Of a stretch of DNA of 64,000 nucleotides, positions 6,990 to 64,000 are shown piece by piece. Origin of the DNA: Lingula anatina (taxonomy: Eukaryota > Animalia > Brachiopoda); the NCBI GenBank assembly GCA_051362555.1, contig CM120645.1, positions 17,112,001 to 17,176,000 of the forward strand. Reading direction: 5' to 3'. Each line of letters opens with the position of its first letter. The first letter of the stretch is position 1. The notes below the pieces were generated by a model, which was not told the origin of the DNA, made no database searches, and was given only the letters and a program-made list of their open reading frames with translations. A program made the position numbers and the translations under genes.

Positions 6990-33776
<26,787 letters not shown>

Positions 33777-37340: not shown

Positions 37341-38450
37341 TCATGAATATTTCATTGCGTGCTTTTTAGAATTGAAAACATCCTTTTGTTGTAGTAAATT
37401 ATTGTATCGATCTTCACATGCTTTCACTTTCTCAATAAAGTAATCACTTCTCTGTATACTCTCCAAAAGATCTGCTTGCACAAGGCAGGTGTCTTGGAAA
37501 CGTGACGCATGTTCCTTTGAGAGACTTCGGAAACTTCCGTCAGCAACCGAAAACAATCGAACATTCGCTACGCTGTCATCTTCTGTGACTCGGATGTTGT
37601 CGTCAAATAGAATGTGTTGCACAGACGTATCGTGGAGATTTATCCACAGAGGTTTTCCTTTGCTGTAATGATACCCATGGTTTTGCCAGTTGGCGAAATC
37701 GTCCACAAATGCGCGAATTCCCCCACCTTCGCTAAGTATTGAATAGATTTGATCCTCAGACGATAGAGTCACATCACATTCATTTCTTTGGCCTTTTAGC
37801 TCGAAGTTTTCACCATTTCGTAGTATAGCACCTGGTTTCGTATGCACCTTTAGCGGCAGTGGATGTGGGAAATCAGGGTGTAAACCGCCAGTGAAAAGTT
37901 TAATGCACTCCAAAACGTTTGCTGCATCCATGCCATAGGTTCGGAGGACCACGCAAAAATCTCTTCCTTGTGAGTAAAGAGTAGACAAGAGATTGAAGAA
38001 AGACGGGAGAAGATAGTGGTATCTCTTACCGTTCGTCCCATGCATGTAGAACGCAGCTTTGACGTTACTGTGTTTTCCATGCGTCCACTCCAAGAGACGG
38101 AGGTGCTTGTCGAAAAAAGTAGAAAATCGCCGACCTAGTTCAACCTGAGTGAAGTCACCTGTAGCTTGTCGCAGGAGAAGACGATCATATGGCACTTTAA
38201 CGAGCTCCTTCTCTAGATATTTGTAGTACGTGACACAGTCCTCATTAGGGGGGTCCAGGGAAGGGGTGTCACTGACCCACGTCCACTCCCCTGTTTTGTC
38301 GTCTTCCTTCCCCCATGTGACGCCAGTTAGATAGGAATTCAAAGCCTGTTCTACATTGATGTTTGTGACGGAGTCCGCGACGAGAATAGTGTTCCGTAAA
38401 TCGAAATGGAGCACCAGTTTCCTACTGTTATGTGCAGACATGAATTGCAT
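37341..38450 (-). CDS. Uncharacterised single-exon 369-aa protein with HAD-superfamily-like motifs
   Basis: Long clean ORF in otherwise ORF-poor DNA; N-terminal hydrophobic strand followed by HFDLRNT (motif I-like), VVLRT (motif II-like), ILFDDN (motif IV-like). Family assignment is inferred from motifs only. Confidence 0.82.
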   Translation of the reverse strand: MQFMSAHNSRKLVLHFDLRNTILVADSVTNINVEQALNSYLTGVTWGKEDDKTGEWTWVSDTPSLDPPNEDCVTYYKYLEKELVKVPYDRLLLRQATGDFTQVELGRRFSTFFDKHLRLLEWTHGKHSNVKAAFYMHGTNGKRYHYLLPSFFNLLSTLYSQGRDFCVVLRTYGMDAANVLECIKLFTGGLHPDFPHPLPLKVHTKPGAILRNGENFELKGQRNECDVTLSSEDQIYSILSEGGGIRAFVDDFANWQNHGYHYSKGKPLWINLHDTSVQHILFDDNIRVTEDDSVANVRLFSVADGSFRSLSKEHASRFQDTCLVQADLLESIQRSDYFIEKVKACEDRYNNLLQQKDVFNSKKHAMKYS

Positions 38451-45760: not shown

Positions 45761-46857
45761 ACGACGCTAGTAAACCCTGTAAAGCGGAGGATCGTCTACC
45801 TCTCCGTTATTTAGGGCATGTGACAAAACCGAGCTTCTGCGTCCTGATATACCGACACTGCATCATGGCGAATTCAACAACAAACGAGACAAACGGGACC
45901 CTAGTAGGCAACATTACGACGTTGTCAACATGGTCGAGTAGTGAAACTACCACTGGCAGTTATTTCACAGCAACCGATCTCGGGGACGTCCATTCACCAA
46001 AGAATTATTCCAAATACTCTTTGGAAACTTACACAACTATCTACTGGTCAGGTAGGTTAACTTTAATTGTAAAACCGTTTAAATGAATTTTTGATATTAA
46101 TTAACTGTTTATATTCGTAAGAACCCAGTGATATTGTCTAATTGTTTTTATTTCCGGAGACGATAATTTTTGCCAGCTGTAAAGTGCACATTATTTTTTG
46201 ATCGGGTCATTAGTTACAGGTACGCTATCATACAGTGAGCATTTATATTTCCTGAACACAAAGCAGCATTTGGGGTTTCGTAGCAACGCCGTGATCAATG
46301 ATCTGCCTTTTTTGGTCAGAAAATGTTCTTGTTCCACAGGTTATGAGATATGCAACATATTCATCGAGTAATTGACTTGTTATATAAGATTTGATAATAA
46401 TATTTGTGGTATCTGTCGTATACAGCCTGTCTTTGTAGACAAGAAGGTTGAACTTATTAAAACTTCGTCATTTCAAAATGGCCGTTTTCTACAGACACAG
46501 TTAAACCACTGAATGTCTTTTAACTAAGTATCCGTAAAAAAACTTTATAGAGCAAAATCTTTGTCTATTACATCAGAAGTTTTATAGTTCAAAACTGTCT
46601 TCTAAAACGTACAAAATATGCAATACCGCACTACATGTACACCTTGCGTACTTTCACTTTTGACCAGCTTTTTCGATGTAAATGCTAACATATTGATTTG
46701 TGAGATTGATCATTGATAAGTGCTGTGTCAATAATATTTTTCATTGCCATTGGTTACCTTGCTATCGGTTAACCGTGCTGGCAGTGGATAAAAGGTTGTT
46801 AATTAGTTAACAGGTTCAAATAACATTTTGATTACCCCTTTTTAATTTCTAATTAAT

Positions 46858-47965
46858 AATAAGTTTATTTGAGCACTAAATGATGTGAATACATTTGCAG
46901 GCTCTCTAGACTACAATATTTACACAATATATATATATACAATTATATATGTTTACATATGTAGTATGTTAAATTATACATGTGTTAATGCAAATTATGC
47001 TATAATATTAATTAATTAAGCTATTCACAGCATTGTTGACAATAAGTGGCTGTGATATACTAGATCTCAGGTGAACTATGTATTTTAACAGCAGTCTTTA
47101 CAAATTCTGCTATTACTTTGAGACTTTTATGACAGGGTGGATTAAGGAGAATTGACAATATCTGATCACTGTCATCTAGACCCACTACACTGATTTTCAG
47201 TAGTTCATCATGCATTCGTTGCCTCTCAACAGTGTATCTTGTGCATTCTGTGAGGAAATGTTTTTCATCCTCTACACAGTTGCAAGCTTTACATTTTCTC
47301 TCATCAAGTGGAGTTTTAGGGTTTGTGTATCGGCCCCTTTCTATTGCTAGTTCGTGGTCACTTAGTCTAATTTTTGCTAGTGTTTTGATATCTAAGGGGG
47401 AGACACTCATTTTGATGTAATTTTCACATTCATAAGATTTTTTAATTGTTTTGTATGTCCTTAATTTGTTTGAGGTCGAACTATTTAATTCCTGCCAAAA
47501 GAGTTTTTCGATTTTTATGTTCAATTTTTCTACTAGGTTTTCTATTTGATGTAATTTCTTTGGTGGGTTGTTATCTTTGGAGAAACCCCAACAATTGTGA
47601 AAAGATTGGATGGATTCTGTCCATGTGTTTCCCTTTGTATCTTGCTCAAGATTGTACATTTGCTTTACAATTCTATTATTTGGCAGTTGTTCCAGTCTAA
47701 GACTATATCTTTGGACAAGTTTGGCTATAGTTGGAAAAATAGGGTACCTGCCGAGCTCGGCTCTAGACATGGTATTGCTAGCATGCTTTCTTAGACCTAG
47801 AATCCATTTGCAAAACTTTAAGTGTACCTGTTCGAACGGCATTTTATTAATCTTCTTCAGAGACATGTTATTCTGTTTAAGTATCTCCTGTGACCAGACC
47901 TCACAACCATAAAGCAAAATTGGTTTGATAAGTTTGTCAAATTAGATTATTAAGATTATTAGATT
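46858..47965 (-). mobile_element. 5'-truncated non-LTR retrotransposon (LINE ORF2 C-terminus, RTE-X/CR1-L2-like)
   Basis: ORF 47060-47917 has LYGCEVW, HLKFCKWILGL, ELGRYPI, LRTYK, RLSDHELAIERGRY and CxxC...EDEKHFLTEC. The 3' end on the minus strand has AATAAA followed by a short TTA tail. Absent at the paralogous site ~58870. Confidence 0.88.
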
Positions 47966-48385
47966 ATTAATTAGAATATAATAAAACAAAAGAGTGTTCC
48001 GGGAAAATCACGACGATCTCCTATGTTCTCTTGCGAGATTTTCGATATGTTCCACATTTTGAGCAGTATAAAAGCTGTGCATCGTCTGCAGTCGTCGCCA
48101 GAAGGGAGAACTTAACGTGCGGCACTGAAATAAATTTCTAATTCCTATCTTCCTTTTATCCTGTCGGTAGCCTCTCACTACCTTTGCTGTAAAACATAGG
48201 GAATACTGATGAGACTTCCTAGTTTTCTTATGATTTTGTAGGTGAAACATCCAGGCTATGATAAAGGGCAGTTTAAATCTGGTACTGTTGAAAATGAAAG
48301 CTTCCTGTGTAATGAGACATTTATACGGCCAAATAAATGATTTTTTAGCATGAATTACGTCCTAAAAAGAATTATATTAATTTTA

Positions 48386-48596
48386 GTATTCCCAGAGCTT
48401 TTAGATCGATCTATCCCCGCGGGGAGTCTCACTAGATTACTGTCAGATAATCTGGCTTAAATGTCCGTCCCGCCTACTACAAGCTGTAAGGGGGTAATTA
48501 TCTTTCGTGTCCGTTCGGCTGACAGCTATTTAGCATGAACCCCCAGGGAGTTAGGTCGATCTAAAGTAGATCGATCTAATCTCTGGAAATGGGGTC
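48386..48596. mobile_element. MITE family A copy, present only in duplicate unit 1
   Basis: attcccagagcttttagatcgatcta ... gatctaatctctggaaatggggtc; empty paralogous site at ~59290. Confidence 0.85.
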
Positions 48597-49144
48597 TAAG
48601 CTTGTCAAAGAATTCTCCATTTGCATTTAAAGCTTTTTTCGTTTTGGAACGTGGCCGAGGTTTCTTGTCATCTCACCCTAGAAAATACAGACTTGACATT
48701 TAATATGGAATATTTCAGTTTCGAAGGTACATGTATGCCTAGGTAAAAATGCGTTATTTTTTTCAAAAACTCCAATCTCATATAAGATTTGTGAATGGAG
48801 AAGTGTGAAGTCAGGTGTTTCGCTACCAATTAACTGACTTCCATGTCTGTTGCGCTGATACGTTATGTAATATGCAGTGATTTAATTGGGCAGTGTTCCT
48901 TTGGGCTGCTCAAAGCTTGGCTTAGTCAAATCTTGGTTCTGTCAAAAAAGTATCCATATGTCGGCAACTACTGCATAGAAGAATTTGAAATTGTGCATGC
49001 AAGCGGTCAGTTTTGCAATGCGTAAAATGAGCTAAGTCGTGCTTTACAAATTTGTTGATCTGTGGCAGAATGGCGCGAAAAAGACGGACATTACCAGACA
49101 GATTATAGCGCCAAATGGAACGGTCCCCGCAGTTTTATAGAGTA

Positions 49145-49940
49145 ATGCCCAGACTTAAGTACCCACAAATAAGCCACGCCCAATGTATCGACATCTCACC
49201 AAAGGGTACAGGACTCACTGTCCTTCAGGATATGTTGCTGCAACTAAACAAAAACCACCCAGTCCGTTCAGAATGAGGGGTAAATTGCCACCAAAATGCA
49301 TTTTTCAAGGCCTTTAGCGAACACCAAACTGGTTTTAGCAGCTTAGAATACCAGACGACCTCCGAGGTACCAACTGTAAACAGCAAAACATCGTCGTCTG
49401 TTTCTCTAATGAATTGGGGGCCATGACCGTTTCTGGGTAGAACACTGAAACCGCGTGGCTTTATTTATTGAGATCAGATTTCACCTGTACGGCCCAACTA
49501 GTCAATACAGAGTTTACAGACATCCAGAAGAGGCGAACGACGAAGCATGTGCCGCGTCTAAAGTACATCGGGTCATTGACAGCGTCAGTATTTGCCAAAA
49601 CACCAATGGTAGTCGTCTACGAAAATCCGAACCAGATCAAATAAAGGAATAATCTGGGAACCACTTGACTATCATTTGATAGGGGACACCTTAGGAACAA
49701 TTTAAGGTTGCACGGTGAGTTTGCCGGTTCACATAGAGCACTTTTAATAGCAGATAACTTACAGAACCATGAGAATGAGCAGCTGCCCTGGTCATTAAAA
49801 TTGCTACATTTGAACCACATAGACAATATGTGGGTAGGCCATTACTCGCCTAATCAACGGCCTACATGTCCTACAGCAAAACTGGACCAAATTGGACATT
49901 TTTTGACCGATTTCTGGAATGTTATTCCAGATTGAACTCT
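49145..49940 (+). mobile_element. Decayed Tc1/mariner transposase remnant inside a ~1.9-kb insertion (~48700-50635) unique to unit 1
   Basis: Fragments MPRL, ALFIEIRFHL...RVYRH, HRALLIADNLQ and LPWSLKLLHLNHIDNMW resemble Tc1 motifs (FSDESRF, RVxR, HxA, LPWPxxSPDLNPIExxW); interrupted by stops and frameshifts. Confidence 0.65.
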
Positions 49941-52900
49941 AAAAAATTATCCCAAGGAATGCCTTGCCGCTTCAGAGCGCTGGTAACAGCCAGAAGAGGC
50001 CAAGCGTAACAGCGACCGTTGCTATGACTAGACATGAGGGTCCTTAGTAGAGCGTGAAACTCTTTTACAGACGATAATTTGGAAAATATGGAGATCCAAA
50101 ATATCTCTTTTAATGGATGTCGTATGACATAGAATAGGCAATGTATTTCTGTTTGCTTCACTGTCGAATTCAATCTATGAACTGATGCAACCATGACATC
50201 AAAGAGATAATATAAAGTTATTAAAACAAGATTTTAATCTTTATTTTCATTTATCAGTCAGCAAAATGGGAAAAAACTGATGAAAAATGATTTGGAAAAA
50301 ATATTCCATATTAATGTTAAGTCTGTATATTAAAGGGACAATAACTGTTCATTTTGGCCAAAAAATGAATTTTCCTGGAGTAAACAGCAATTTTCCCATA
50401 CTTTCCAATGGTTAATGAATCCATTTCTACATTCAAAGTTAGTCCCTGTTTTTTTTCTAAAAAGTTTGTTTTTTTGTAATAATCTCTTAAGAGATTATTA
50501 CAGCGTATAGCCATCTATGGAGGTCACGATGAGGCCGGTTGACAAGGTCAGATATCAGAATAATAACTTTGACTGCCGTTTTTGTGGTAAAACAGAATAA
50601 ATTATATTTCTATGAGTTGTTTACAATGTTTTTATTCCTAACATCACTTGTACTTTTAGCTTAATTAAGACAAACTTTAGCCCATTTTACATCATTAGAA
50701 ATCTTTGTTTGAAAATAAATTTGTGTTCTAAATTTCTATTGAATATGAAAAATAGATTCATCATGCCCTTGAATAATTTTTGCCTTTGCAGTATCGGCAT
50801 CTTCTCTAATGTTTGTTCTACTCGCATGTCTGCCTACAAACGTACAGGAAAAGAAAAAAGTAAGTAGCCATAACTAGTTTCTGTTTTTAAAGTAGAAGTA
50901 GAAAAAGAAGTTGGATATTGGATACTGTTTCCTTATGATAAGCCATTCATAAAATGTGCTTTAAATACAAAACATTGCGTACTTCATTTATATTTGTCAC
51001 TATCGCAAATACTAGTCATTAAATGCTCTCATTTTTATTGTGAATTTCTTGAATCGGATACAATTGATAATTCTTCTGTTTCACAGTAAAATACATCCTG
51101 GTTTGACGAGGGAGAACTCCATGGCCAGCAGAACATCAGTGGAAACAGATGAAGATGGATACTTGTACGTGTGGTCTGTTAATCATTAACCCATTGGGTA
51201 TTACTCATGTACAAAACATTGTGCTCTATATTTACATTTGTCACTATCGCAGATACTAGTTAAATACTCTCATTTTTATTGTGATTTTTTTCAATCGGAT
51301 AAAATTGATATTTCTTCTGTTACACAGTGATATACAACCTGGCTTGACGAGGGAGAACTCCATGGCTAGCGAAACATCAGTGGACATAGAAGAAGATGCA
51401 GACTTGTGCGTGTGGTCTGTAAAGATACTCGTGGGTATAGAGCGTCCTCTTTTGGTGGATATGTTCAAATGGGCAGGCGTCTGTAATTTATGTTTGGGGC
51501 TATTGCTGGCGATTCCTGCAAGATATGCATTAATTCCGCTCCTTCTGTATGACGTATCACAAGCGATACACCTATGTGTGTTGTACATGAAAAAGATGGA
51601 CAACGAGGACAAAGATGCTGCATTTCAAGATGTAAAACGCGTTCATCTTTCGTATACACTTCTTGCTGGATTTCCCGCTGGATCAGCGGCAAAGATTCTT
51701 GGTGCACTCTGGCTGGACGGAATATGGGACAGTTGGGGCTATTCAGATTTTGGTTTTACTATTCTCTTCACACCTCATACAACCCTTATTCTGATTGCTG
51801 CACCAATTGTGTTTTTCACATTTTGCTGCGCATGTTGCAAGTGCAGTGAATCAGAACCGTGTAAAGACAGAAAGTTTTTGCTGATTTGCTGTTTGCTATA
51901 TGTCATCTTTAGCTTATTGTGGCTTGTTGGAGCGGGTTTGATGATATCAAGTTCCCCATACGACAACGGTATTGTCCACCAGATAAGTGCTGCCATCTAT
52001 ACAATCATACTGCAGGCTATAAACATGGACCTTCCATTGGCCGTTGGCTTTGCTTTTGTTTTTGGTGCCTTTTTCCTTTATGCGATCATACTGTTCCTGT
52101 ATGTCGCCAACAATGGTAAGTTGTCAAAGTATACGGATAAGGTTAAAATAAGGTATTTATTGTTTCTACAACAGCCCTGTAGTCAAGCGTTTTTTTCTTT
52201 CATTTTTTTTGTACTGGCGATTAAAGCATGTTTACATTTCTTCGAGCTGATGTGCTGAAAAGTGAAATGAATTTTATATGAAATTTGGTAGGATTTGATT
52301 AAAATGCATTATCATTTATCCATGGATTCTTTATTCCAGGTAGACTATTCAAAGTTGTTCCCGAATTCTCAGATGCCTGGTGTTTTGGTTGGTCGGCAGT
52401 GATACTGGTTTACTTCCTTGACAACCCTGGTTACATCAGTTCGTTGTATATTAAGGTGTATGCCATGTTACCGTTGCTGTTCTCCTGCCTTATAGGTCTA
52501 ATATATGATGTCTACAGAATATTTCGTATGGCCAGAAAACGACAAAAGATGTTGGCGGAATACGCAGGTAAAAAAACGACAATTTTATCATCTTAAGCTA
52601 CTATATTCTCTGTAGACACTCCCTGTTTACATAAACATAAGTAGCGTATTGGCAAAGCGTTTTACCTCTTTTACATAATTAATTGCTATTTTTCACTGCG
52701 TTTGAATTGAGTAATTTTTTTAATTAAAAATTTGTAGAAAATTAACAATTTTTGAAAAGAAAGATTCAAATCAGTTATTCACAAGAACAAAGATATTTGC
52801 AAAAAAAAAAAAAAAAAATGAATTTTCCTTTTCTCATCATGGGGAGGAAGAAAATTTATGGACAGTTGACGTCACCGACCAGATTTGGGACGAGATCAGT

Positions 52901-55900
52901 CATATGATGAGAGAGTCTTGGGCTAAAGAAAAAATGCTTATCCGCGGAAGAGACAATAGCGATCTACATCACACTGATTTTGAGATAACGAAGATACTGC
53001 GTGTCGAGAACCCCCGAGTGAAGAGCCAATATTTTTGCAAATTACAAGACATATCCAGGAAATGTGCACGAAATCCCATGGACAGAGTGCCATGGATGCA
53101 CGCCTATACGTACCAGCTTTCCGAAATCTTAAATGAGCGTCTTCGAAGTGAACTGAATGAATACTATTTTTTCCACGGGACGAGCACAGATGCTGCTAAA
53201 GGAATATGTGCCAAAGGGCTGGATATTAGTGTTGCAAGCGATACTGCTGCTTTTGGAAAGGGCATTTACCTTGCAGAAAATTCCTCGAAGTCGGACCAAT
53301 ATGGAAGAATAAGTAAGACCGCCATTTGTCTACAACTTTAATAGAAAAATGGCCAAATAGGTGACACCATATCGTTATTCAAAAATGCAATTTGTAATGA
53401 TGATACATCATACGTATAACTGAAATATGTATTGACGAAACTATTTAAACGGGACGTGCCCTTTGAGCGTGTCGAATAAGAAAATGTTGCAATTTGGCTG
53501 ATGGGAATCTGATCCTGATCTTACGTATCATAGAATAAACGTTTTGACATTTACATTGGTCTTTAAGGAAACTGCCAACAGCATTAGAGCGCCAAGCTTA
53601 AAGAGACTTTGGTATAATAAGATGATATGTATATTTTGTATGAAGCTCGAGGGAGAGAAAATTGAATAGTTCCGTTCTGAAATGAAATGTTAAAACCTTT
53701 ACTTTATGTAACACCGGTTTTGTATTTTTCAGATAAATACCGCCGCGGAAGAAAAGGACTAAAAATGTTCCTTGTTCGAGCCTGCCTCGGTCGACCATAT
53801 CTCACACGTGAAATAAAACAATTCCCTTGGCCTCCGTGTACTGTTAAAGGCTGCATGCGAGTCTCATGCAACCACACCAGACAATTTGACTCTGTGATAG
53901 CAGAAATTCCCAAAAAATTGTACAGGGAGTTTGTTATTTTCGACAAAAAAATGTGCTATCCTGAATACATCATCACATACAACAGAAAAAAGTAGTGTAT
54001 CCAAACGACTTAAACGACTTAATTCAATATTCGGTGAAAAGTCTGTTTTATTTCTATTCCGAGGTTCCTGACTTTGCTGCTGACTGAGAATGCGTCAAGG
54101 TACACAAAGAGAGGTATAGTTTCATTCGAAAGAAGTACGGGGAAAAGTGGTTTAGTTTAGACTATTGAAAATGGGCGTTACTAAAGGAACGAAGACGATA
54201 TTAACTCTAATGGTAGGATTAACATTAATTTTAATTTATGTGGTTTAACAATATATATACATGTATAATGAAATTTGGTAATCCAAAATATGCAGTTTCA
54301 AGACAGACTGGGGACATTTGCACTTTTATATTTGATGACAAAAATATCGAAAAAGGAAAATGTATACATGATATTTAATGTGAGGGCATATAATGGAGAG
54401 CAGTATATTTGTAAAACTTTCTCTCTTTTCCTGTAATGAAACACCCGGATGTATTCAAAGGTGCAGGTCCATGTATTTTACGCGACATACTTAATAATAT
54501 GATTGTGGTGATGATGAAGGATTGACCAATTTTGTAAGCATTATCAAACCAATTGCGTAAAGTGTAACTGTTTGTTGAGGTCCATTGAAGACGTGTGGAA
54601 AACGCATTCACTTACATACTGTGTTATTATAATCAGTCAACAATATAATCATTCACTTTGTTTCGGCCTTGCATGAATATTTATCATTCTCTGTGTGGGT
54701 ATGCCTGAGACAAATGTATATCTAAAATCTGATAGGTAGAAACCCTCACCTATTTACTATTGCATATCAATTAGAATGTCAATTAGTTGCTGCCACTGTG
54801 GCATGCATATAGATACCCTGTAGATAATGTGTATACAAACCGAGTTCTTGTACATAATAAGGGGACTTAAGATTTGGAACTGAAGATGTGAGGGTGTTGT
54901 TATATTTCCTGTCCTATGCATCAGTGACAAGTGGAATTTCAGAAGAACCTGGACAGGGAGTATCATGGAACCCTACATGTTTGTGATGAATTGTGTACAT
55001 ATGTTGTGGTATTGGGAACTCTCATTATAAGGCATGGACTTACTAACGTATATATCTGTATATCCACTGAAGATTTAGAGTTGCGTCTTATTTATAGCTT
55101 AATAAAGTTTTGTATTACTGTGATGATGATAAAGATACTTTCATATTTACTGACCGCTTATTTTTCAGTTCATTACTGTGCTTGCAATAATATCCATAGG
55201 ATCCAAACATGTTTCAAATAATGACCCATCGGACAATAAACCATATCGGACTATAAGCAATGAGCAATGAATTCATACCCCACCTTTGCAAACGCAAACC
55301 TTTAAAATGCTCGGTGCAGCCCAAGTCGTGTGACCTTTCATAATTCCATCACAAGTGCTTTTAAATTAAAATTTTTTAGCAGCATCTAGTTTGCCTTGAT
55401 TATATACAAGGTGAATTAAAAAAAGCAAATATAACAGGTCCATGCATGTCTCTCTCTTATTTTGACAGTAATATAAACTTGCTAGTTTCAGTTGTTCTCT
55501 GTATCGGAGATCTGTACGATAACAATCAGAATGAAAAAAATGTTTACTTTTCACGACCCATATTCATAGATTTATATTGCATTAGTTTAACGGCCAGTGA
55601 TGACACATTTACTGGGTACCACTAGCACACTCGGGGACAGGACACATGTACCGGGAAAGACATAGTGGGATATTTACGTTTTTTCTCCATTTCCGGCGAC
55701 ATCCTTGGGACTCAGTAGTACCTGTAAAAACCATACAGAGTGTTAACGCTTCATTGGGACTACAATGGTTAATCCCGGTTTTACTATAGGCTCAGAAGGG
55801 CATATAAAATTACGTGTTGTTTCGCTAGTTATGTTGCTCATACAAAGATTCTTCCTGGAAAGCAACATTAACCTTTAACTTATGTCGACGCGAAAAAGAT

Positions 55901-57756
55901 TTTAGTTACCGTTTCAACAGTAATAAGCACATACAGTACCCACTTAGTTCAAGATTAGTTCATTCTTAGTTCATTTGTACGTGTATGTGTTGACTAACAT
56001 TACACATTTATTTTCATGCTTTAGCCATAAAATAACATGGCTAAACGGAAGAGCTTATAAAATAATAAAATGAAATAAAGAAAGAAATACAAGACAATCA
56101 ATTAATGGTGAAGAAGAAGTAATAATGAATATTTCCACAACCCTAAAACATTTGATATATTTACTTCGTAGACACATCTAACCTTATTTTCAGATAGAAT
56201 AGACTAACGATTGGACTAGGTAGATTGCACACATTGTGACTATGAATGTTCAATACTTGTTCGTTTATTCAGTCAGCTTCTTGGCCTTTTCATACCTTAT
56301 AAATACACTCATAACCTCGCACTCATTGTGTGTGTCCTCTTAAACGAGGTCATGAAGTTTGCGTTCGAGAGGCTACCGACAAAATAAAAAAGGGGTCTCG
56401 CCATGTTTTTTTTTTCATTTTTTATGGTACAATTTACTCATATGGTGTCTTCCATAAAACACGACTTTCATAGGTTTATAGTCCATTAAAGTGATGGAAA
56501 TATGCGCTACGTTGAAGACTTTGTTGTATTGTAGAAAAAGGGTGACAGCTTAAGCGCTTTGTTTTCATTTTCAGATGGCAACAAGTCATCAAAATCCTGG
56601 TTTCCGGAGAAACAGTCAACAGCATACTCCTTAACTGTGGCCTAACAGTCCTTAGATTTGCCTTTTGATCCAACATGTCATTTGGAGGCATGTCTTGTAT
56701 CTTAATCATCGTGTTGATGGTATATTGTGATCGCTGTTAAGCTCGTGAGATATTTGCTGAAGACTGTGTGGTGGAAAGTGTTGTTCACCTGTCAGTCATA
56801 TGGCAACTGGCCGCGCGTAGGAAAATATTCAGAATTATATTGAGGTTGAACCAATCTGGTGATCCAGAGGAAAAAGTAAATGCTGACGTTTGTAGGAAGG
56901 TTAGTAGCCAGAGATACATTTACAAACTGGTTAAGTCAGTACCTCAAAGGACTGACGACGTCATAAAGCTTCGTGGCAGCCACATGAGATCATATACCAA
57001 ATATATTATTACTCACCAGAAGTAATACAAATGGAGAAAGTTTCACAAATGTTGAAAGTCTTTTGTTAAAACCAGAAAGTATAGCAAAGCATTAATATGC
57101 AGGTTGACTTATGTATTTTATCAAAGTTTCAACTTATTTAAACCACAGATGCACATGTAATACATATACAGTATTTTGTTAAAATGCTACATCATTTTAC
57201 GCACTAATTTTTGGTTTCATACATTTTGCAATGCATGCATCTAATTGTACTTGTAACTGCAAATGATTAACTCCATTCCCGGTTTTGTCGAATGCCATTT
57301 TTAGCGTTTGTGTCCTCTCCTACTTTAACCATATTTAGCAATCAATTGTTATATTCTTGTAGAGACCAGTAAAGCGTTGGCAGCCATTGCTCTATTTTGT
57401 TTGTGCATCAACGGTAACTATACAGATCGATGTATTTCAAATGACTGAAAAGAAATAGGGCATATCACTAAATTAGTTCGGAAAGAATATGACCAGTAAA
57501 AGTTTTTAGAAGGTTTGCCAAAACACTGAACACAATTCCAAAGGAGAAAAGAGATTATTTACTCAAGTTTAGCATTTTACGAAACCAAAAACGTTATCTA
57601 TACGTCGAGATAACAGTGACCCAACAAAACACGTTAATCAAGGTAGCCAAGGAAACTAGATACAAAAACAGGTTGATTTTATCTACGTGCAGTGATCATC
57701 CTCGATAGCTGCAGTCGTGACGCTATTAATTTTGACTATCTCAACTGCAGAGATGT

Positions 57757-57770
57757 GTCACCTTGGCAAC
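57757..57770. promoter_or_regulatory. RFX X-box-like motif GTCACCTTGGCAAC upstream of TM-PARP copy 2
   Basis: 14-bp imperfect palindrome fitting the X-box consensus, about 97 nt upstream of ATG 57867, followed by a TGACG half-site. Confidence 0.5.
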
Positions 57771-57866
57771 ATGACGCCAGTTAACCCTGTAAAGCGGAGG
57801 ATCTGAGTTTACCTTTCCGTTATCTAGGGCCCCATCTGACAAAACCGGGTCTCTCGACACTGCATC

Positions 57867-60800
57867 ATGGCGAATTCAACAACAAACGGGACAAACGGTA
57901 CAAACAGGACCTTAGTAGACAGCGTTACGACGTTGTCAACTTGGTCGATTAGTGAAACTACCACTGACAGTTATTTCACAACAACCGGTCTCGGGGACAT
58001 CCATTTACTTGTCCCAACCATGAATTATTCCAAGTACTCTTTGGAAACTTACACAACTATCTACTGGTCAGGTAGGTTAACTTTAATTGTTAAACCGTTA
58101 AAATGAATATACGGTACAAATTAACTGTAAATATTCGTAAGAACCCAGTGATATAGTGGAATTGTTTTTATCATCGGACAGGAGATTTTTGTCAACTATA
58201 GAGCACACATTATTTTTGATCGGGTCATTAGTTACAGGTACGCTTTGATACAGTGAGCTTTCTTATTTCCTGAACACAAAGCGGCATGGGGCTGTTTAAG
58301 ACATTTGGGATTTATAAGCGATGTCGCGATCAATGATAAGGGTATCTCTACCTCTTCTGGTCAGAAAATGTCTTCGCTTCACAGGCTTTGAAATATGCAA
58401 CACGTTCATCGACTTGTTATATAAGATTTGATAATAATATTTGGGGTAGGCCTATCTGTCGTATACAGCCTGTCTTTGTAGACAAGAAGGTTGAACTAAT
58501 CAAAACTTCGTCATTTCAAAATGGTCGTTTTCTATAGACACAAACCACTAGATGTCTTTTAACTAAATATCCGTAAAACTTTATAGAGCAAAATCATCAC
58601 CGCCTAATTAAATCAGAACTTTAAGTTTTATTTTTCAAAACTCTCTACTAAAACGTACAAAATGCGCAATATCGCACTACACCTTGCCTACTTTCACTTT
58701 TGAGACAGCTTTTCGATGTTAATGCTAGCATATTGATTTGTGAGATTTTGATAAGTGCTGTGTCAATATTATTTTTCATTGCCATTGGTTACCTTGCCGG
58801 TTAACTGTGCTGGCAGTGTATTCATTAGTTAATAGTTTCAAATAAAACATCGATAAACCCTTTTCATTCTAATTAGAATACAATAAGTGTTTGGGGAAAA
58901 ACACAACGATGTCGTATGTTCTCTTGCGAGCTTTTTTGACGGTTTGTTCCACATTTTGCACAGTACAAAAACTATTTATCGTCTGAAGTCGTCGCCAAAA
59001 GGCATATGTATCCGAAAGGGGGACTTAACGTGGCTTACCTGCTGGTCTAGTTGATTCCGCACTGAAATAAAACTCCTGTCTTTTTTATCCTGTCGGGAGC
59101 CTCTCACTACCTGTGCTGTAAAGCAAAGGAAATACTGATGAGGCTTCCTAGTTATGATTCTGAAAGTTAATCATACTGGCTATGATAAAGGGCTATTAAA
59201 ATCTGGAAATGCAGTGTCCCTTTGTGGCAAGACATTTATAAACGATTTTTAAGGATGAATTACGTCATAAAAAGAATTATACTAGTTTAGGCTTGTCAAA
59301 GAATTCTCATTTTGCATTTAAAGCCTTTTTTCATTTTGAAACGTGACTGAGGTTTCTTGTTATCTCATCCAGGAAATATATTGATATATTTTTCTACCAT
59401 CACTTGTGCTTCTATCTTAATTAACACAAACATTAGCCTATTTTACATAAGGAATTATTGTTTGAAAATAAATTTGTGTTCTAAATTTGTATTGAAATGG
59501 AAAAATAGATTCATTACTACCCTTGAATATGTTTTGCTTTTGCAGTATCAGCATCTTCCCTAATGCTCGTTTTACTTGCCTGTATCTGCCTCCAAACTTA
59601 CGTTTACAGGAAAGGAAAAAAGTAAGTAATTATAACTAGCTTCTGCTTTTAAAGATCTTTTTGGGTATTATTCATGTACAGAACATTGTGTACTACATTA
59701 ACATTCGTCACCATCTCAAATACTAGCCGGTAGTTAAATGCTTTCATTTTTATTGTGAACGTCTACAATTGGATATATTTGACAGCTTTTCTATTACATA
59801 GTAAAATATATGCTGGTTTGACGAGGGAGAAAACCATGGCCATCAAAACATCAGTGGAAATAGAAGAAGATGAAGACTTGTGCGTGTGGTCTGCAAAGAT
59901 ACTCGTGGAGATAGAGCGGCCTCTATTGGTGGATATATTTAAATGGGCAGGCGTTTGTGCTTTATGTCTGGGGCTATTGCTGGCGATTCCTGCAAGATAT
60001 GCATTAATTCCGCTACTCCTGTATGACGTATCACAAGCCATTCACGTATGTGTGTTGTATGTGAAAAAGATGGAAAACAAGGACAAAGATGCTGTATTTC
60101 AAGATGTTAAACGCGTTCATCTTTCGTATACACTTCTTGCTGGATTTCCCGCTGGATCAGTGGCAAAGATTCTTGGCACACTGTGGCTGGACGGAATATG
60201 GGACAGTTGGGGCTATTCAGATTTTGGCTTTACTATTCTCTTCGCACCTCATACAATCCTTATTTTTATTGCTGCACCAATTGTGTTTTTAACATTTTGC
60301 TGCGCATGCTGCAAGTGCAGTGAATCAGAACCGTGTAAAGACAGAAAGTTTTTGCTGATTTGCTGTTTGCTATACGTCATCTTTAGCTTATTGTGGCTTG
60401 TTGGAGCGGTTTTGATGATATCAAGTTCCCCATACGACATACATGGTATTGTCCATCAGATAAGTGCTGCCATCTATACAATCATAGTGCAGGCTATAAA
60501 CATGAACCTTCCATGGGCTCTTGGCTTCGCCTTTGTTTTTGGTGCCTTCTTCCTTTATGCGATGACACTGTTCCTGTATGTAGCCAACAATGGTAAGTTG
60601 TCAAAGTATATAATTATTGTTTCTAGAGCAGCCTTATACAAGCGTTTTTTATTTTTGTAATGGCGATTTAAGCATGTTGTTTATTTTTCCTAGAGTTAGA
60701 GATGATGAGCTGAACAGTGAAATGAACTTTACATGAAGTGTGGATAACTGGATTAAAATACATTCATCATTTATCCATGGATTGTATATTCCAGGAAGAC

Positions 60801-62590
60801 TGTTGAAAGTTATTCCTGAGTTCTCAGATGCCTGGTGTTTTGGTTGGTCGTCAGTGATACTGGTTTACTTCCTTGACAACCCGGGTGACGTCAGTTCGTT
60901 GTCTATCAAGGTGTATGCCATGTTTCCGTTGCTGTTCTCGTGCCTTATAGGTCTAACGTATGATGTCTATAGAATCTTCCGTATGGCCAGAAAACGTCAA
61001 AAGCTTTTGGAGAAAAGAAAGATACAGCAAGATGAAGCGAATCAAGTGACAGAAATGGAAGTACAAGCACCAGATTATTGGGTTAATTTTCAGGATGATT
61101 TTAAGAAATGTGCAGGTAAGGGAACTATTTTTTTACCATCTAGAACTGCTGTATTCTTTCTAGGCATTCCCTGTTTACATAAATATAAGTAACGAATTGC
61201 AAAGTTTCATATCCCATGTCCTCCCTAATATACACTATTGCATTTTTCACTACGTTTAAATTGCGTAAATCAAATTTACATTTTTAAAGAAAGAATCAAT
61301 TATACATAAGAACACAAACATTTTCATAGAGTATCAAAATCATGTTCGTCATCTTGTAGGGGAGGAGGGAGGGGTCATGACAGTTGAAATCGGCGGCCAA
61401 ATACGGAAAGAGGTCAAACATATGATGAAAGAGTCTTGGTCTAAAGAAAAAATGCTTATCCACGGAAGAGACAGCGTTGGTTTACATCACACCGATTTTA
61501 GGATAACGAAGGTAGAGCGCGTCGAGAACCCTCGGCTATGGAGCCAGTATTTTTGCAAATTACAAGATTTATCCAGGAAATGTGCACGAAATCCTATTGA
61601 CAGAGCGCCGTGGATGCACGCATATACGGACCAGCTTTCCGGTATCTTAAATGAGCGTCTTCGAAATGAACTGAATGAATACTATTTTTTTCACGGGACA
61701 AACACAAATGTTGCTGAAACAATATGTGCCACTGGGCTGGATTTTAGGATTGGAAACGAGGGACTCTTTGGAAAGGGCATTTACCTTGCAGAAAATTCCT
61801 CGAAGTCGGACCAGTATGCATGGCTAAGTAAGACCGCCATTTCCTACAACTTTAATAGAAAATAGGTGACCCTATATTGTTGTTTAAAATTATATTTTGT
61901 AATGAAATTACGTCATACGAATAACTGAAATATGCATTGACAAAACCATTTAAACAGGAATTGCCTTTTGATGGTGACAAGTAACTAAAAGCTTTGATGT
62001 GGCTGAGTGAAAATTGATCCTGATCTTACGTACATAATAAAATAAACATTTTGACATTTCCACTGGTCTTGTTACGCTGATTGTATAAATAGTATTTATT
62101 TTCTGGGCTTGTAAAATACCTTCTACTTTCTGCTCACGTTGGAATAAAATTATTTATCTATCTATATAGCAAGCCGTCACAAGCATCGGAGAGGCAACCT
62201 CAAATAGACTTGGGTATTTTGAGCTGATATGTATATTTATATGTGGAGAGGAAGAGCAAACTGAGTAATTGTGCTCTGATATGAAATGTTAAAACCTTGA
62301 GATTATATTAACCCTTTTTGTATTTTTCAGGTGCGACAGACCGCGGAACAAAAGGATTAAAAATGTTCCTCGTTCGTGCCTGCATCGGTCGACCATATCT
62401 CACACGTGAGAAGAAACAATTTCCACGGCCTCCTTGTACTGAGAAAGGCTGCATGCAAGTCGTATGCAACCATACCAGTCACTTTGATTCCGTGATAGCA
62501 GACGTTTCCAATATGTTGTACAGAGAGTTTATTATTTACGAGAAAACAATGTGTTATCCTGAATATATCATCACGTACGACAGAATATAG
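57867..62590 (+). CDS. Multi-pass transmembrane protein with C-terminal PARP catalytic domain, copy 2 (intact, 706 aa). Exons 57867-58071, 59546-59621, 59802-60592, 60795-61115, 61360-61827, 62331-62590
   Basis: All introns are GT-AG with matching phases (1,2,1,1,1); total 2121 nt. N-terminal NxS/T sequons; about 8-10 hydrophobic segments; PARP motifs RVENPRLW, NEYYFFHGT, FGKGIYLAENSSKSDQY, MFLVRACIG, FDSV, YREFIIY, CYPEYIITY. Confidence 0.87.
59802..60592 (+). CDS. TM-PARP copy 2 exon 3 (main multi-pass membrane region)
   Basis: Within ORF 59755-60660; catag acceptor, gtaagt donor; closely similar to the copy 1 exon at 51328-52115. Confidence 0.85.
61360..61827 (+). CDS. TM-PARP copy 2 exon 5 (PARP catalytic domain, His and Tyr motifs)
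   Basis: Encodes FFHGT and FGKGIYLA; tgtag acceptor, gtaaga donor. Confidence 0.9.
62331..62590 (+). CDS. TM-PARP copy 2 exon 6 (PARP C-terminal part with catalytic Glu position)
   Basis: Encodes MFLVRACIG...FDSV...YREFIIY...CYPEYIITY-stop; tttcag acceptor. Confidence 0.9.
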
Positions 62591-64000
62591 TATTGAATCC
62601 AATTTAAACGACTTAATTCAATATTCGGTGAAAAGTCCCTTTGATTTCTATGCCAGAGCTTCGTGACTGCGAGAATGAGAATGCGCCAAGATGCACAAGG
62701 GGACGTATAGCCTCAACCGAATGACGTTAGGGGAAATACAAGGTGGTTATACAAGGTGCATTGAAGAAAGCAAATATAACAGGTGCATGGCTCGCAATAT
62801 GGCAGTAACAACAAATTGCTAGTTTCATTGGTTCTCTATAGCGAATGATTACCCCAGGTGTCTGCACTCATTGACACCACCTCTCGATTTTTCACCGAAT
62901 GATTGACAAGTGGCAACCAAAACAGGTCAATTGACATCAATTAAGTTGTTCATTTCATCATCATTGCATTTAAATTGTTCTGCTCCTCCTGGACCCCGTA
63001 ACTCAAAAGCATCGCGCATTGCGACCGAGCGCAAGCGTCTCGATTCCATAACTAGCCCTGTTGTCGCTTACGACAACAAGTTGCAATTACGGTCGTATCA
63101 GTAGTCATCTTTGTTTTGTTATGCAAATGATTTGCTCAGTATATATACGGCCAGCAGTAGTTCTGGGCGCGGCCACGTTTGTATTTGACGAGCAGAAGGC
63201 TCAGGTCGCCAAGTATCAAGATTTTGTGTAGTCACTTCGGCAAAATCTGTGGATCACCATCGGGCGGGAAAAGCCACATTTCTCTGTACGTATTGTTAAC
63301 TATTTGCACAATGTATATGTAAAAGCGTAAGTCGTTTTTGTCTAGCCAAATTTATAGTATGCACAACATTTCCAGTTTCTTATAATTTTAATTATATTTA
63401 ATTAATTAATTAAAATTAATTATTTCTTTTTATATTTGTATTCAGTTTATATTATATTTGTGTATTTTTATATAATCAGTTTGGTGTTTATATTTCATTA
63501 TTTTGTTATTTTAGTATCACCATGTCCATGTCAGTGTATGTGCGTGAATAAAGGTGTGAACATTTTCCCGTTGTTTGTGTTCGTTTGGCGTGGGATCCGC
63601 AACAAGTACTCGACACATATAATACACTGCGGCCTCTATGTGATATCGTTATTCGCAATGCCCGATGCTTTCCAGTTACGGGGCCCTGTTTTTTTTTTTT
63701 TTTTACTCTGCTCTAGTATATGTAATTACTACATGATCAAATGTAACTATACTGCATATCTTTGACTGTGAAAAAAAAAGCCTTTTTGTGGCTGTGAGGT
63801 GTGTTTCTGCCCGAATATCATCTGTCTGATAACAGTGGCATTAAACATTAAAAAACATTTATAAAACTAGAAGTAAGAAAGGATAAAAATTAGGGTAGAA
63901 TAAAAAAAACGAATGTTTATATATAATTTTCTTTTAAAAATGAAGCTAATTAATGAAGCTTAAGGCAAAATAAAAATTACATTACAGCCATGGAAATACC

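Follow-up and report, generated by a model that had tools for sequence, protein, structure and literature searches.

A spliced Lingula anatina gene joining a predicted nine-helix membrane domain to an H-Y-E PARP domain

Can a membrane domain and an ADP-ribosylating enzyme be parts of one polypeptide, and if so, what might such a protein do? The characterised animal PARPs are activated by DNA breaks, RNA, ubiquitin or filament formation. The question is raised by a gene of the brachiopod Lingula anatina at 57867..62590 of a window of 64,000 nucleotides (contig CM120645.1 of assembly GCA_051362555.1, positions 17,112,001 to 17,176,000 of the forward strand); all coordinates below are those of this window. 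A preliminary description of the locus had proposed that six exons encode a receptor-like, multi-pass membrane protein ending in a PARP catalytic domain. The data presented below establish that this is one real spliced gene, in which a predicted polytopic membrane domain and a PARP domain are combined in a 706-amino acid protein.

When joined across GT-AG borders with intron phases of 1, 2, 1, 1 and 1, the six exons translate into a reading frame of 706 amino acids followed by a stop codon, and an in-frame stop lies upstream of the start codon, at 57837. The exons are listed here, together with a tandem paralog (copy A) that the preliminary description overlooked.

57867..58071, + strand: exon 1; start codon, then an N-terminal tail rich in Ser and Thr that carries the five sequons and is predicted to lie outside or in the lumen; covered by RNA reads.
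59546..59621, + strand: exon 2; predicted transmembrane segment 1 (TM1; amino acids 70-88, 59548-59604), followed by a basic cytosolic exit.
59802..60592, + strand: exon 3; predicted TM2-TM7, with conserved R133, D138, D169, Q172, K216, D224 and H244, the GFP-x-G motif and the Cys cluster.
60795..61115, + strand: exon 4; predicted TM8-TM9, a basic cytosolic helix, and a P-x-Y-W element (61070-61081) before the catalytic domain.
61360..61827, + strand: exon 5; first part of the PARP catalytic domain, with H576 (61692), Y606 (61782) and K613 (61803).
62331..62590, + strand: exon 6; second part of the PARP domain, with C656-C661-C666-H668 (62435-62473), the catalytic E686 (62525) and the stop codon.
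45865..53995, + strand: tandem paralog copy A; exons arranged as in the gene above, with H-Y-E intact, and a sequence about 99% identical to that of RefSeq XP_013381233.1.

The RefSeq model XP_013381232.1 (P0039), an "uncharacterized protein" that carries an automatic PARP label in UniRef, differs from this translation at 1 of 706 residues (705/706 identical), and a second model of equal length, XP_013395278.1 (P0001), differs at 20 of 706. With exon 3 as the query, three matching proteins were retained among 3,034 candidates, every one of them a RefSeq Lingula anatina model.

Evidence for splicing was obtained from RNA reads on 57700-62750, which came from four runs (seven of the nine same-species runs were examined). 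Because reads were accepted from 90% identity, alleles or paralogs contribute to the counts; none of the reads covers the entire message. Exact junction reads numbered 13 for intron 1, 19 for intron 2 (with 4 more carrying variant letters), 8 for intron 3 (with 10 more carrying one variant letter), 7 for intron 4 and 14 for intron 5, and read depth in the intron bins was near zero. The stranded run X6 places the transcript on the + strand. Both junctions that the preliminary description had singled out for checking, 60592/60795 and 61115/61360, are therefore spanned by reads, and the six-exon model stands as proposed. The second of these is the junction between the membrane and PARP exons, which are accordingly not separate genes, and its reads connect the PARP exon with a stretch that is missing in copy A. 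Expression is patchy and depends on the sample: depth over the gene was zero in runs X4 and X5, almost zero in X1, and 256 reads in X6, with X4, X5 and X6 belonging to one study code. That the fusion is an artefact produced by joining two adjacent genes is extremely improbable. The reads are short and few (seven where the membrane exons meet the PARP exons), and none of them is a long read across the message, but set against this are the identical RefSeq model, the reads at every junction, the tandem copy with the same plan, and a distant homolog (P0085, described below) that holds the same layout in a single 647-amino acid frame on a 2,603-base contig.

The C-terminal domain matches PF00644 in a Pfam scan with 63 bits, compared with a cut-off of 26.7 (E 3.5e-17), and the H-Y-E triad claimed for it (H576, Y606, E686) is intact. 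These residues and K613 align with those of tankyrase-2, whereas in PARP12 the last two of the H-Y-K-E positions are occupied by Tyr and Ile. In the PDB, the single sequence matches both PARP12 (E 4e-11) and tankyrase-2 (E 2e-10), and a 21-row profile of the group to which the domain belongs places tankyrase-2 (E 2e-26) slightly ahead of PARP12 (4e-25). Among 39 proteins of this group that were checked, some of them partial, the His is kept in 38, the Lys in 36 and the Glu in 33. An insert of the form C-x-C-x-C-x-H (62435-62473), a candidate zinc site, is present in 29 of the 39 and absent from the aligned tankyrase-2. A P-x-[YHW]-W element ahead of the catalytic domain is found in 31 of the 39; the "APDYW linker" of the preliminary description is present but is this shared element, not a private linker. 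The lysine (K903 of PARP1) has a role in elongation, for which our literature search gave no confirmation. The catalytic glutamate is required for chain elongation (PMC8421145; here and below, statements from the literature refer to the available portions of the cited papers).

The nature of the membrane domain is less easily established. Hydropathy averaged over three divergent homologs yields nine hydrophobic segments (amino acids 70-88, 135-153, 161-179, 205-223, 246-264, 277-295, 334-352, 363-381 and 395-413), of which TM3, TM4 and TM8 are weak (hydropathy 1.2-1.3); the multi-pass character proposed earlier is retained, and the count of eight to ten segments is narrowed to nine. The topology was predicted from simple hydropathy and charge scales. 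Lys and Arg residues in the predicted inside and outside loops number 28 and 2 in this protein, 22 and 3 in a paralog that has no PARP domain (P0084), and 14 and 4 in P0085. Splits as extreme as these are given by 1 of 252 arrangements for this protein, the most extreme possible, by 2 of 252 for P0084 and by 15 of 252 for P0085. Because the K/R-rich loops alternate strictly, the predicted topology is N-out and C-in, with the N-terminus outside and both the PARP domain and the Cys cluster cytosolic. The N-terminal tail, in which all five of the sequons previously listed are present (NST3, NGT7, NGT10, NRT13 and NYS53), fits this orientation. The alternating charges in three homologs agree with the N-out architecture that had been suggested, and they predict a PARP domain on the cytosolic side of the membrane and not on the other.

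The three divergent homologs share identical residues at 53 of 371 positions of the membrane domain, including R133, D138, D169, Q172, K216, D224, H244, C263, C266, D414 and G208-F-P-x-G212. Among these are charged and polar residues within predicted helices; the Cys cluster, with its invariant C263 and C266, lies at the cytosolic end of TM5, and the helix-breaking GFP-x-G motif is in TM4. The label "GPCR-like" (for G protein-coupled receptor, GPCR) could not be sustained: there are nine predicted segments, not seven, and no 7tm family scores above its cut-off, the best being 7tm_3 (E 0.02, 15 bits compared with a cut-off of 33.5, over 33 residues).

No sequence family in Pfam, NCBIfam or the PDB includes the membrane domain (0 PDB matches at E <= 10), and the Pfam matches to Prominin, Fig1, YabQ and 7tm_3 are far under cut-off; in these collections the architecture does not coincide with an already characterised family. 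When an HMMER profile of exon 3 was compared with 1,835,955,588 representatives, four matches were obtained, namely two Lingula paralogs with a fused PARP domain, one Lingula paralog without it, and P0085. The PARP-less paralog (XP_013400356.1, 425 amino acids, with a twin, XP_013413663.1; P0084/P0087) consists of the membrane domain alone, at 44% identity. P0085, with 647 amino acids, has the same membrane-plus-PARP layout at 27% identity, and its membrane alignment extends over 392 residues (25.8% identity, E 2e-16) with a score of 78 bits, whereas none of 300 local shuffles exceeded 10.5. Judged by this alignment the homology of P0085 is real and the fusion has been kept down to 27% identity. 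Pattern matches to the membrane domain were confirmed in 0 of 93 cases in metagenome contigs and in 0 of 39 in viral contigs.

Two further kinds of candidate were considered. The ESM Atlas leads TMEM185A (0.84) and TMEM117 (0.80), with structural TM-scores <= 0.30, were dropped as chance-level; the Pfam scan gave no match to TMEM185A/TMEM60 (PF10269) or TMEM117 (PF15113), and the resemblance is one of language-model similarity only. A first loop with the GLW-C-C motif is the claudin signature. A claudin/PMP22 tetraspan is excluded by the nine segments, the absence of this motif and an E value of 3.4 with a profile of the oyster module discussed next.

Searches with the PARP domain, in which 8 of 275 and 35 of 7,998 candidates were retained, define a group whose named members come from oysters, mussels, a freshwater mussel, snails and Lingula. 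The N-termini in this group are varied, with macrodomains in 8 of 30 and ubiquitin in 1 of 30 (Pfam). In proteins of oyster clusters (P0004, P0005, P0010, P0011, P0053 and P0062) an H-Y-E PARP domain follows a claudin-like four-helix module that has a GLW..C..C loop and sub-threshold matches to the claudin clan in Pfam; our literature search found no paper on these fusions. P0024 (664 amino acids) combines a signal-like segment, a Cys-containing ectodomain with no Pfam family and four hydrophobic segments with the same PARP type; no other layout in the group is as receptor-like. P0032 has a single N-terminal hydrophobic segment ahead of the same PARP type. Homology of the oyster claudin-like module to the Lingula membrane domain was looked for and not found (E > 0.2; 0.2 bits). 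Since the membrane modules of the group are not detectably related to that of Lingula, separate fusions are suggested, although trees give no proof. In PARP-domain trees of 34 and 28 rows, from which partial proteins and near-duplicates were excluded and which contain no human sequences, the Lingula copies form a clade (99-100/98), as do the oyster claudin-like proteins (98-100/98-99). P0085 is a long branch; the approximately unbiased (AU) test rejects neither its grouping with the Lingula copies (p-AU 0.44) nor a grouping of Lingula with the oyster forms (p-AU 0.24). Exchangeable N-termini in marine invertebrates have been read as immune effector shuffling (PMC8195603).

How does this protein compare with known PARPs? 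Of the human PARPs, PARP16 (ARTD15) alone has a transmembrane segment, which is a tail anchor (PMC3372510), as the preliminary description had also stated. The two are alike as integral membrane PARPs with a cytosolic catalytic domain, predicted in our case (PMC3372510). They differ in that PARP16 is an H-Y-Y mono-transferase of clade 6 with one C-terminal tail anchor, whereas the Lingula protein has nine predicted N-terminal helices, is H-Y-E, and ends with its catalytic domain. Tankyrase-1 and -2 (clade 4) share with it H-Y-E and an ENSSKS-x-QY segment, and tankyrase-2 is the best PDB match of the group profile, but the Lingula protein has no ankyrin repeats or SAM domain (no Pfam match, E <= 0.5), and the Cys/His segment that follows QY in tankyrases is missing, a different Cys/His insert being located later in the domain. 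Likeness to the PARP12/14/15-like proteins of clade 3 is seen in the best single-sequence PDB match (PARP12), in relatives that carry macrodomains and are automatically named PARP11/14/15-like, and in the heterogeneous N-termini typical of that clade (PMC4245714). However, E686 is kept, while most clade 3 members have lost the catalytic glutamate (PMC2964712), and the Pfam scan detects no WWE domain, CCCH finger or macrodomain. The oyster proteins (XP_062597376.1 and the XP_065944684.1 cluster) are similar in H-Y-K-E, the Cys/His insert, P-x-Y-W, and the order of N-terminal membrane module and C-terminal enzyme; they differ in that their module has four helices and is not detectably related to the nine-segment domain.

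The nearest precedents in layout are those of Perina et al. (2014), who mention an Amphimedon PARP12-like protein in which an N-terminal transmembrane region precedes the PARP domain, and rhizarian clade 3 PARPs with transmembrane regions (PMC4245714). The available text gives one sentence to each, with no helix number or function, and the comparison is one of description only (PMC4245714); no sponge or rhizarian protein is named among the four HMMER matches. The earlier claim of a non-canonical layout holds insofar as no named PARP subfamily fits, but a transmembrane-plus-PARP combination had already been mentioned in a sponge and in Rhizaria (PMC4245714). Judged on its sequence, the 706-amino acid protein is a PARP by domain and a member of no named subfamily by architecture. 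Our literature search turned up no description of this gene or of any multi-pass PARP, most subscription papers and supplements being outside its scope (for example, the architecture tables of PMC8195603, a paper that covers Lingula, and the supplementary tree of PMC4245714). The main text of Citarelli et al., as available, does not mention "transmembrane" (PMC2964712), and the accessible parts of PMC9503650 and of a fungal PARP preprint (10.64898/2026.07.25.740670) contain no such fusion. In PMC8195603 PARP domains appear as variable effectors of bivalve and cnidarian immune proteins, and this layout is absent from the portion available.

Copy A is located inside a duplicated block upstream of the gene. 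With 68 nucleotides, its exon 2 falls 8 bases short of the 76 found in the gene downstream, so that exons 1-2 are out of frame with exon 3, and its RefSeq model begins at an internal Met. In addition, its linker is shorter, the acceptor site of its exon 5 is displaced, and the beginning of exon 3 is partly duplicated (about 51087-51180); its RNA is of low depth, in run X7 only. Highly transcribed repeats occupy 48300-50800 within intron 1 of this copy. Identity between the tandem copies is 84-88% in the membrane exons and 73% in the PARP exons, and the ratio of nonsynonymous to synonymous substitution (dN/dS) is 0.35 and 0.44, respectively. These values indicate purifying selection, with the membrane part the better preserved of the two and nothing to suggest an arms race.

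What, then, might the protein do? We favor, tentatively, a reading in which the unclassified nine-helix domain and the PARP domain together constitute a membrane sensor that turns on cytosolic ADP-ribosylation. TM1 is predicted to act as a reverse signal anchor, there being no signal peptide, the N-terminal tail would carry glycans on the outside, and the enzyme domain would be brought into the cytosol by the long basic helix that follows TM9. The intramembrane polar residues R133, D138, D169, Q172, K216, D224, H244 and D414 may form a binding or gating site, and the helix bundle could be altered or clustered by a cue that originates outside the cell, in the lumen of an organelle or in the bilayer itself. 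Clustered domains would then spend NAD+ in modifying themselves and neighboring proteins, and might build ADP-ribose chains, because they retain both the glutamate and a lysine like that of tankyrase. The modification could relay a defence or stress signal, the likely setting, and the PARP-less paralog may be a partner, a decoy or an ancestral form.

Three other explanations were weighed. If the membrane domain were a transporter, channel or intramembrane enzyme, the PARP domain would be subsidiary, serving to regulate it or to mark proteins in its vicinity. The stand-alone paralog P0084/P0087 is in keeping with this, and the conserved charged and His residues and the TM4 GFP-x-G motif would be as compatible with a pore or an active site as with a ligand pocket; since, however, no such family was matched in Pfam, NCBIfam or PDB sequences and the fusion is retained in P0085, the most distant homolog, we consider this rather doubtful. 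It is also unlikely, to a similar degree if a little more so, that the membrane domain is a mere tether, holding a constitutive ADP-ribosyltransferase at an organelle as the tail anchor holds PARP16 at the endoplasmic reticulum. Selection for location is suggested by the occurrence of the same PARP group on several unrelated membrane modules, one of them the single segment of P0032, and PARP16 is a precedent (PMC3372510). But nine helices, conserved polar residues and conservation above that of the enzyme domain go far beyond an anchor's needs, and because the 53 identical positions include charged and polar residues in helices, the domain seems to be more than a plain anchor requires. Finally, the PARP domain might be a non-catalytic or weak NAD+- or ADP-ribose-binding module that gates the membrane domain from inside. 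PARP9 and PARP13 have inactive PARP domains (PMC9189837), and the Cys/His insert could alter the active site, but the retention of H, Y, K and E both here and across the group makes such a gate very unlikely.

Several observations weigh against the sensor interpretation. A single homolog, P0085, was found outside the Lingula records, and the PARP-less paralog implies that the membrane domain has a job for which no enzyme is needed. A third paralog model (P0002, 510 amino acids) is without TM6-TM9, and since the N-terminus of copy A is disrupted as well, the family also tolerates decay. Positive selection was not detected, dN/dS being below 1 in all five exons compared, and 24 of 38 classified coding read variants, among the 40 of 169 variants listed, are silent. 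H-Y-E is not sufficient for chains: PARP3 and PARP4 keep it and yet are mono-transferases (PMC9189837). AlphaFold2 models have a mean predicted local distance difference test (pLDDT) score of 38 (P0001, single-sequence) or 37 (PARP-less paralog, 8-row), and no pocket or pore is seen in them. With the model of pLDDT 37, Foldseek gave a best E of 0.075 (TM-score 0.26) and none at E <= 0.001, and VIA-align found generic helical bundles only (best Z 8.5, to a three-helix bundle); models of this quality and their fold searches are uninformative with respect to GPCR, XK scramblase and channel folds. Sensing and activity are both inferred.

Other features of the window are a novel-type protein kinase C gene at 9234-32294 (Pfam matches to PKC_C2, C1 and kinase), in which the near-duplicate C2-domain exons 9234-9551 and 9508-9960 are in tandem and possibly mutually exclusive, and two reading frames on the - strand. 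The first, at 37341-38450, is intronless, encodes 369 amino acids and has no Pfam or NCBIfam family; we take its N-terminal FDLRNT and late FDDN to be candidate HAD-type motifs. The second, at 47060-47941 (293 amino acids), has no Pfam match and resembles the C-terminal part of a LINE ORF2.

The present weight of these findings is limited by the narrow known range of the family and by the low quality of its fold models. Nevertheless, a membrane family with no known relative is defined, and because one chain contains both an intact catalytic domain and a membrane domain of several helices, the passage from membrane signal to ADP-ribosylation can be tested with a single construct. A bolder proposal, which we regard as possible but on the unlikely side, is that this is an undescribed family of nine-helix receptors wired to a chain-building PARP, and one of several independent recruitments of the mollusc/brachiopod H-Y-E PARP group to membranes, alongside the claudin-like oyster forms and the ectodomain with four helices. 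Such proteins would make up a class of animal "receptor ADP-ribosyltransferases", much as there are receptor kinases and receptor guanylyl cyclases. More generally, a group of PARPs in oysters, mussels, snails and Lingula that swaps its input modules bears on invertebrate immunity and on the evolution of poly- and mono-transferases.

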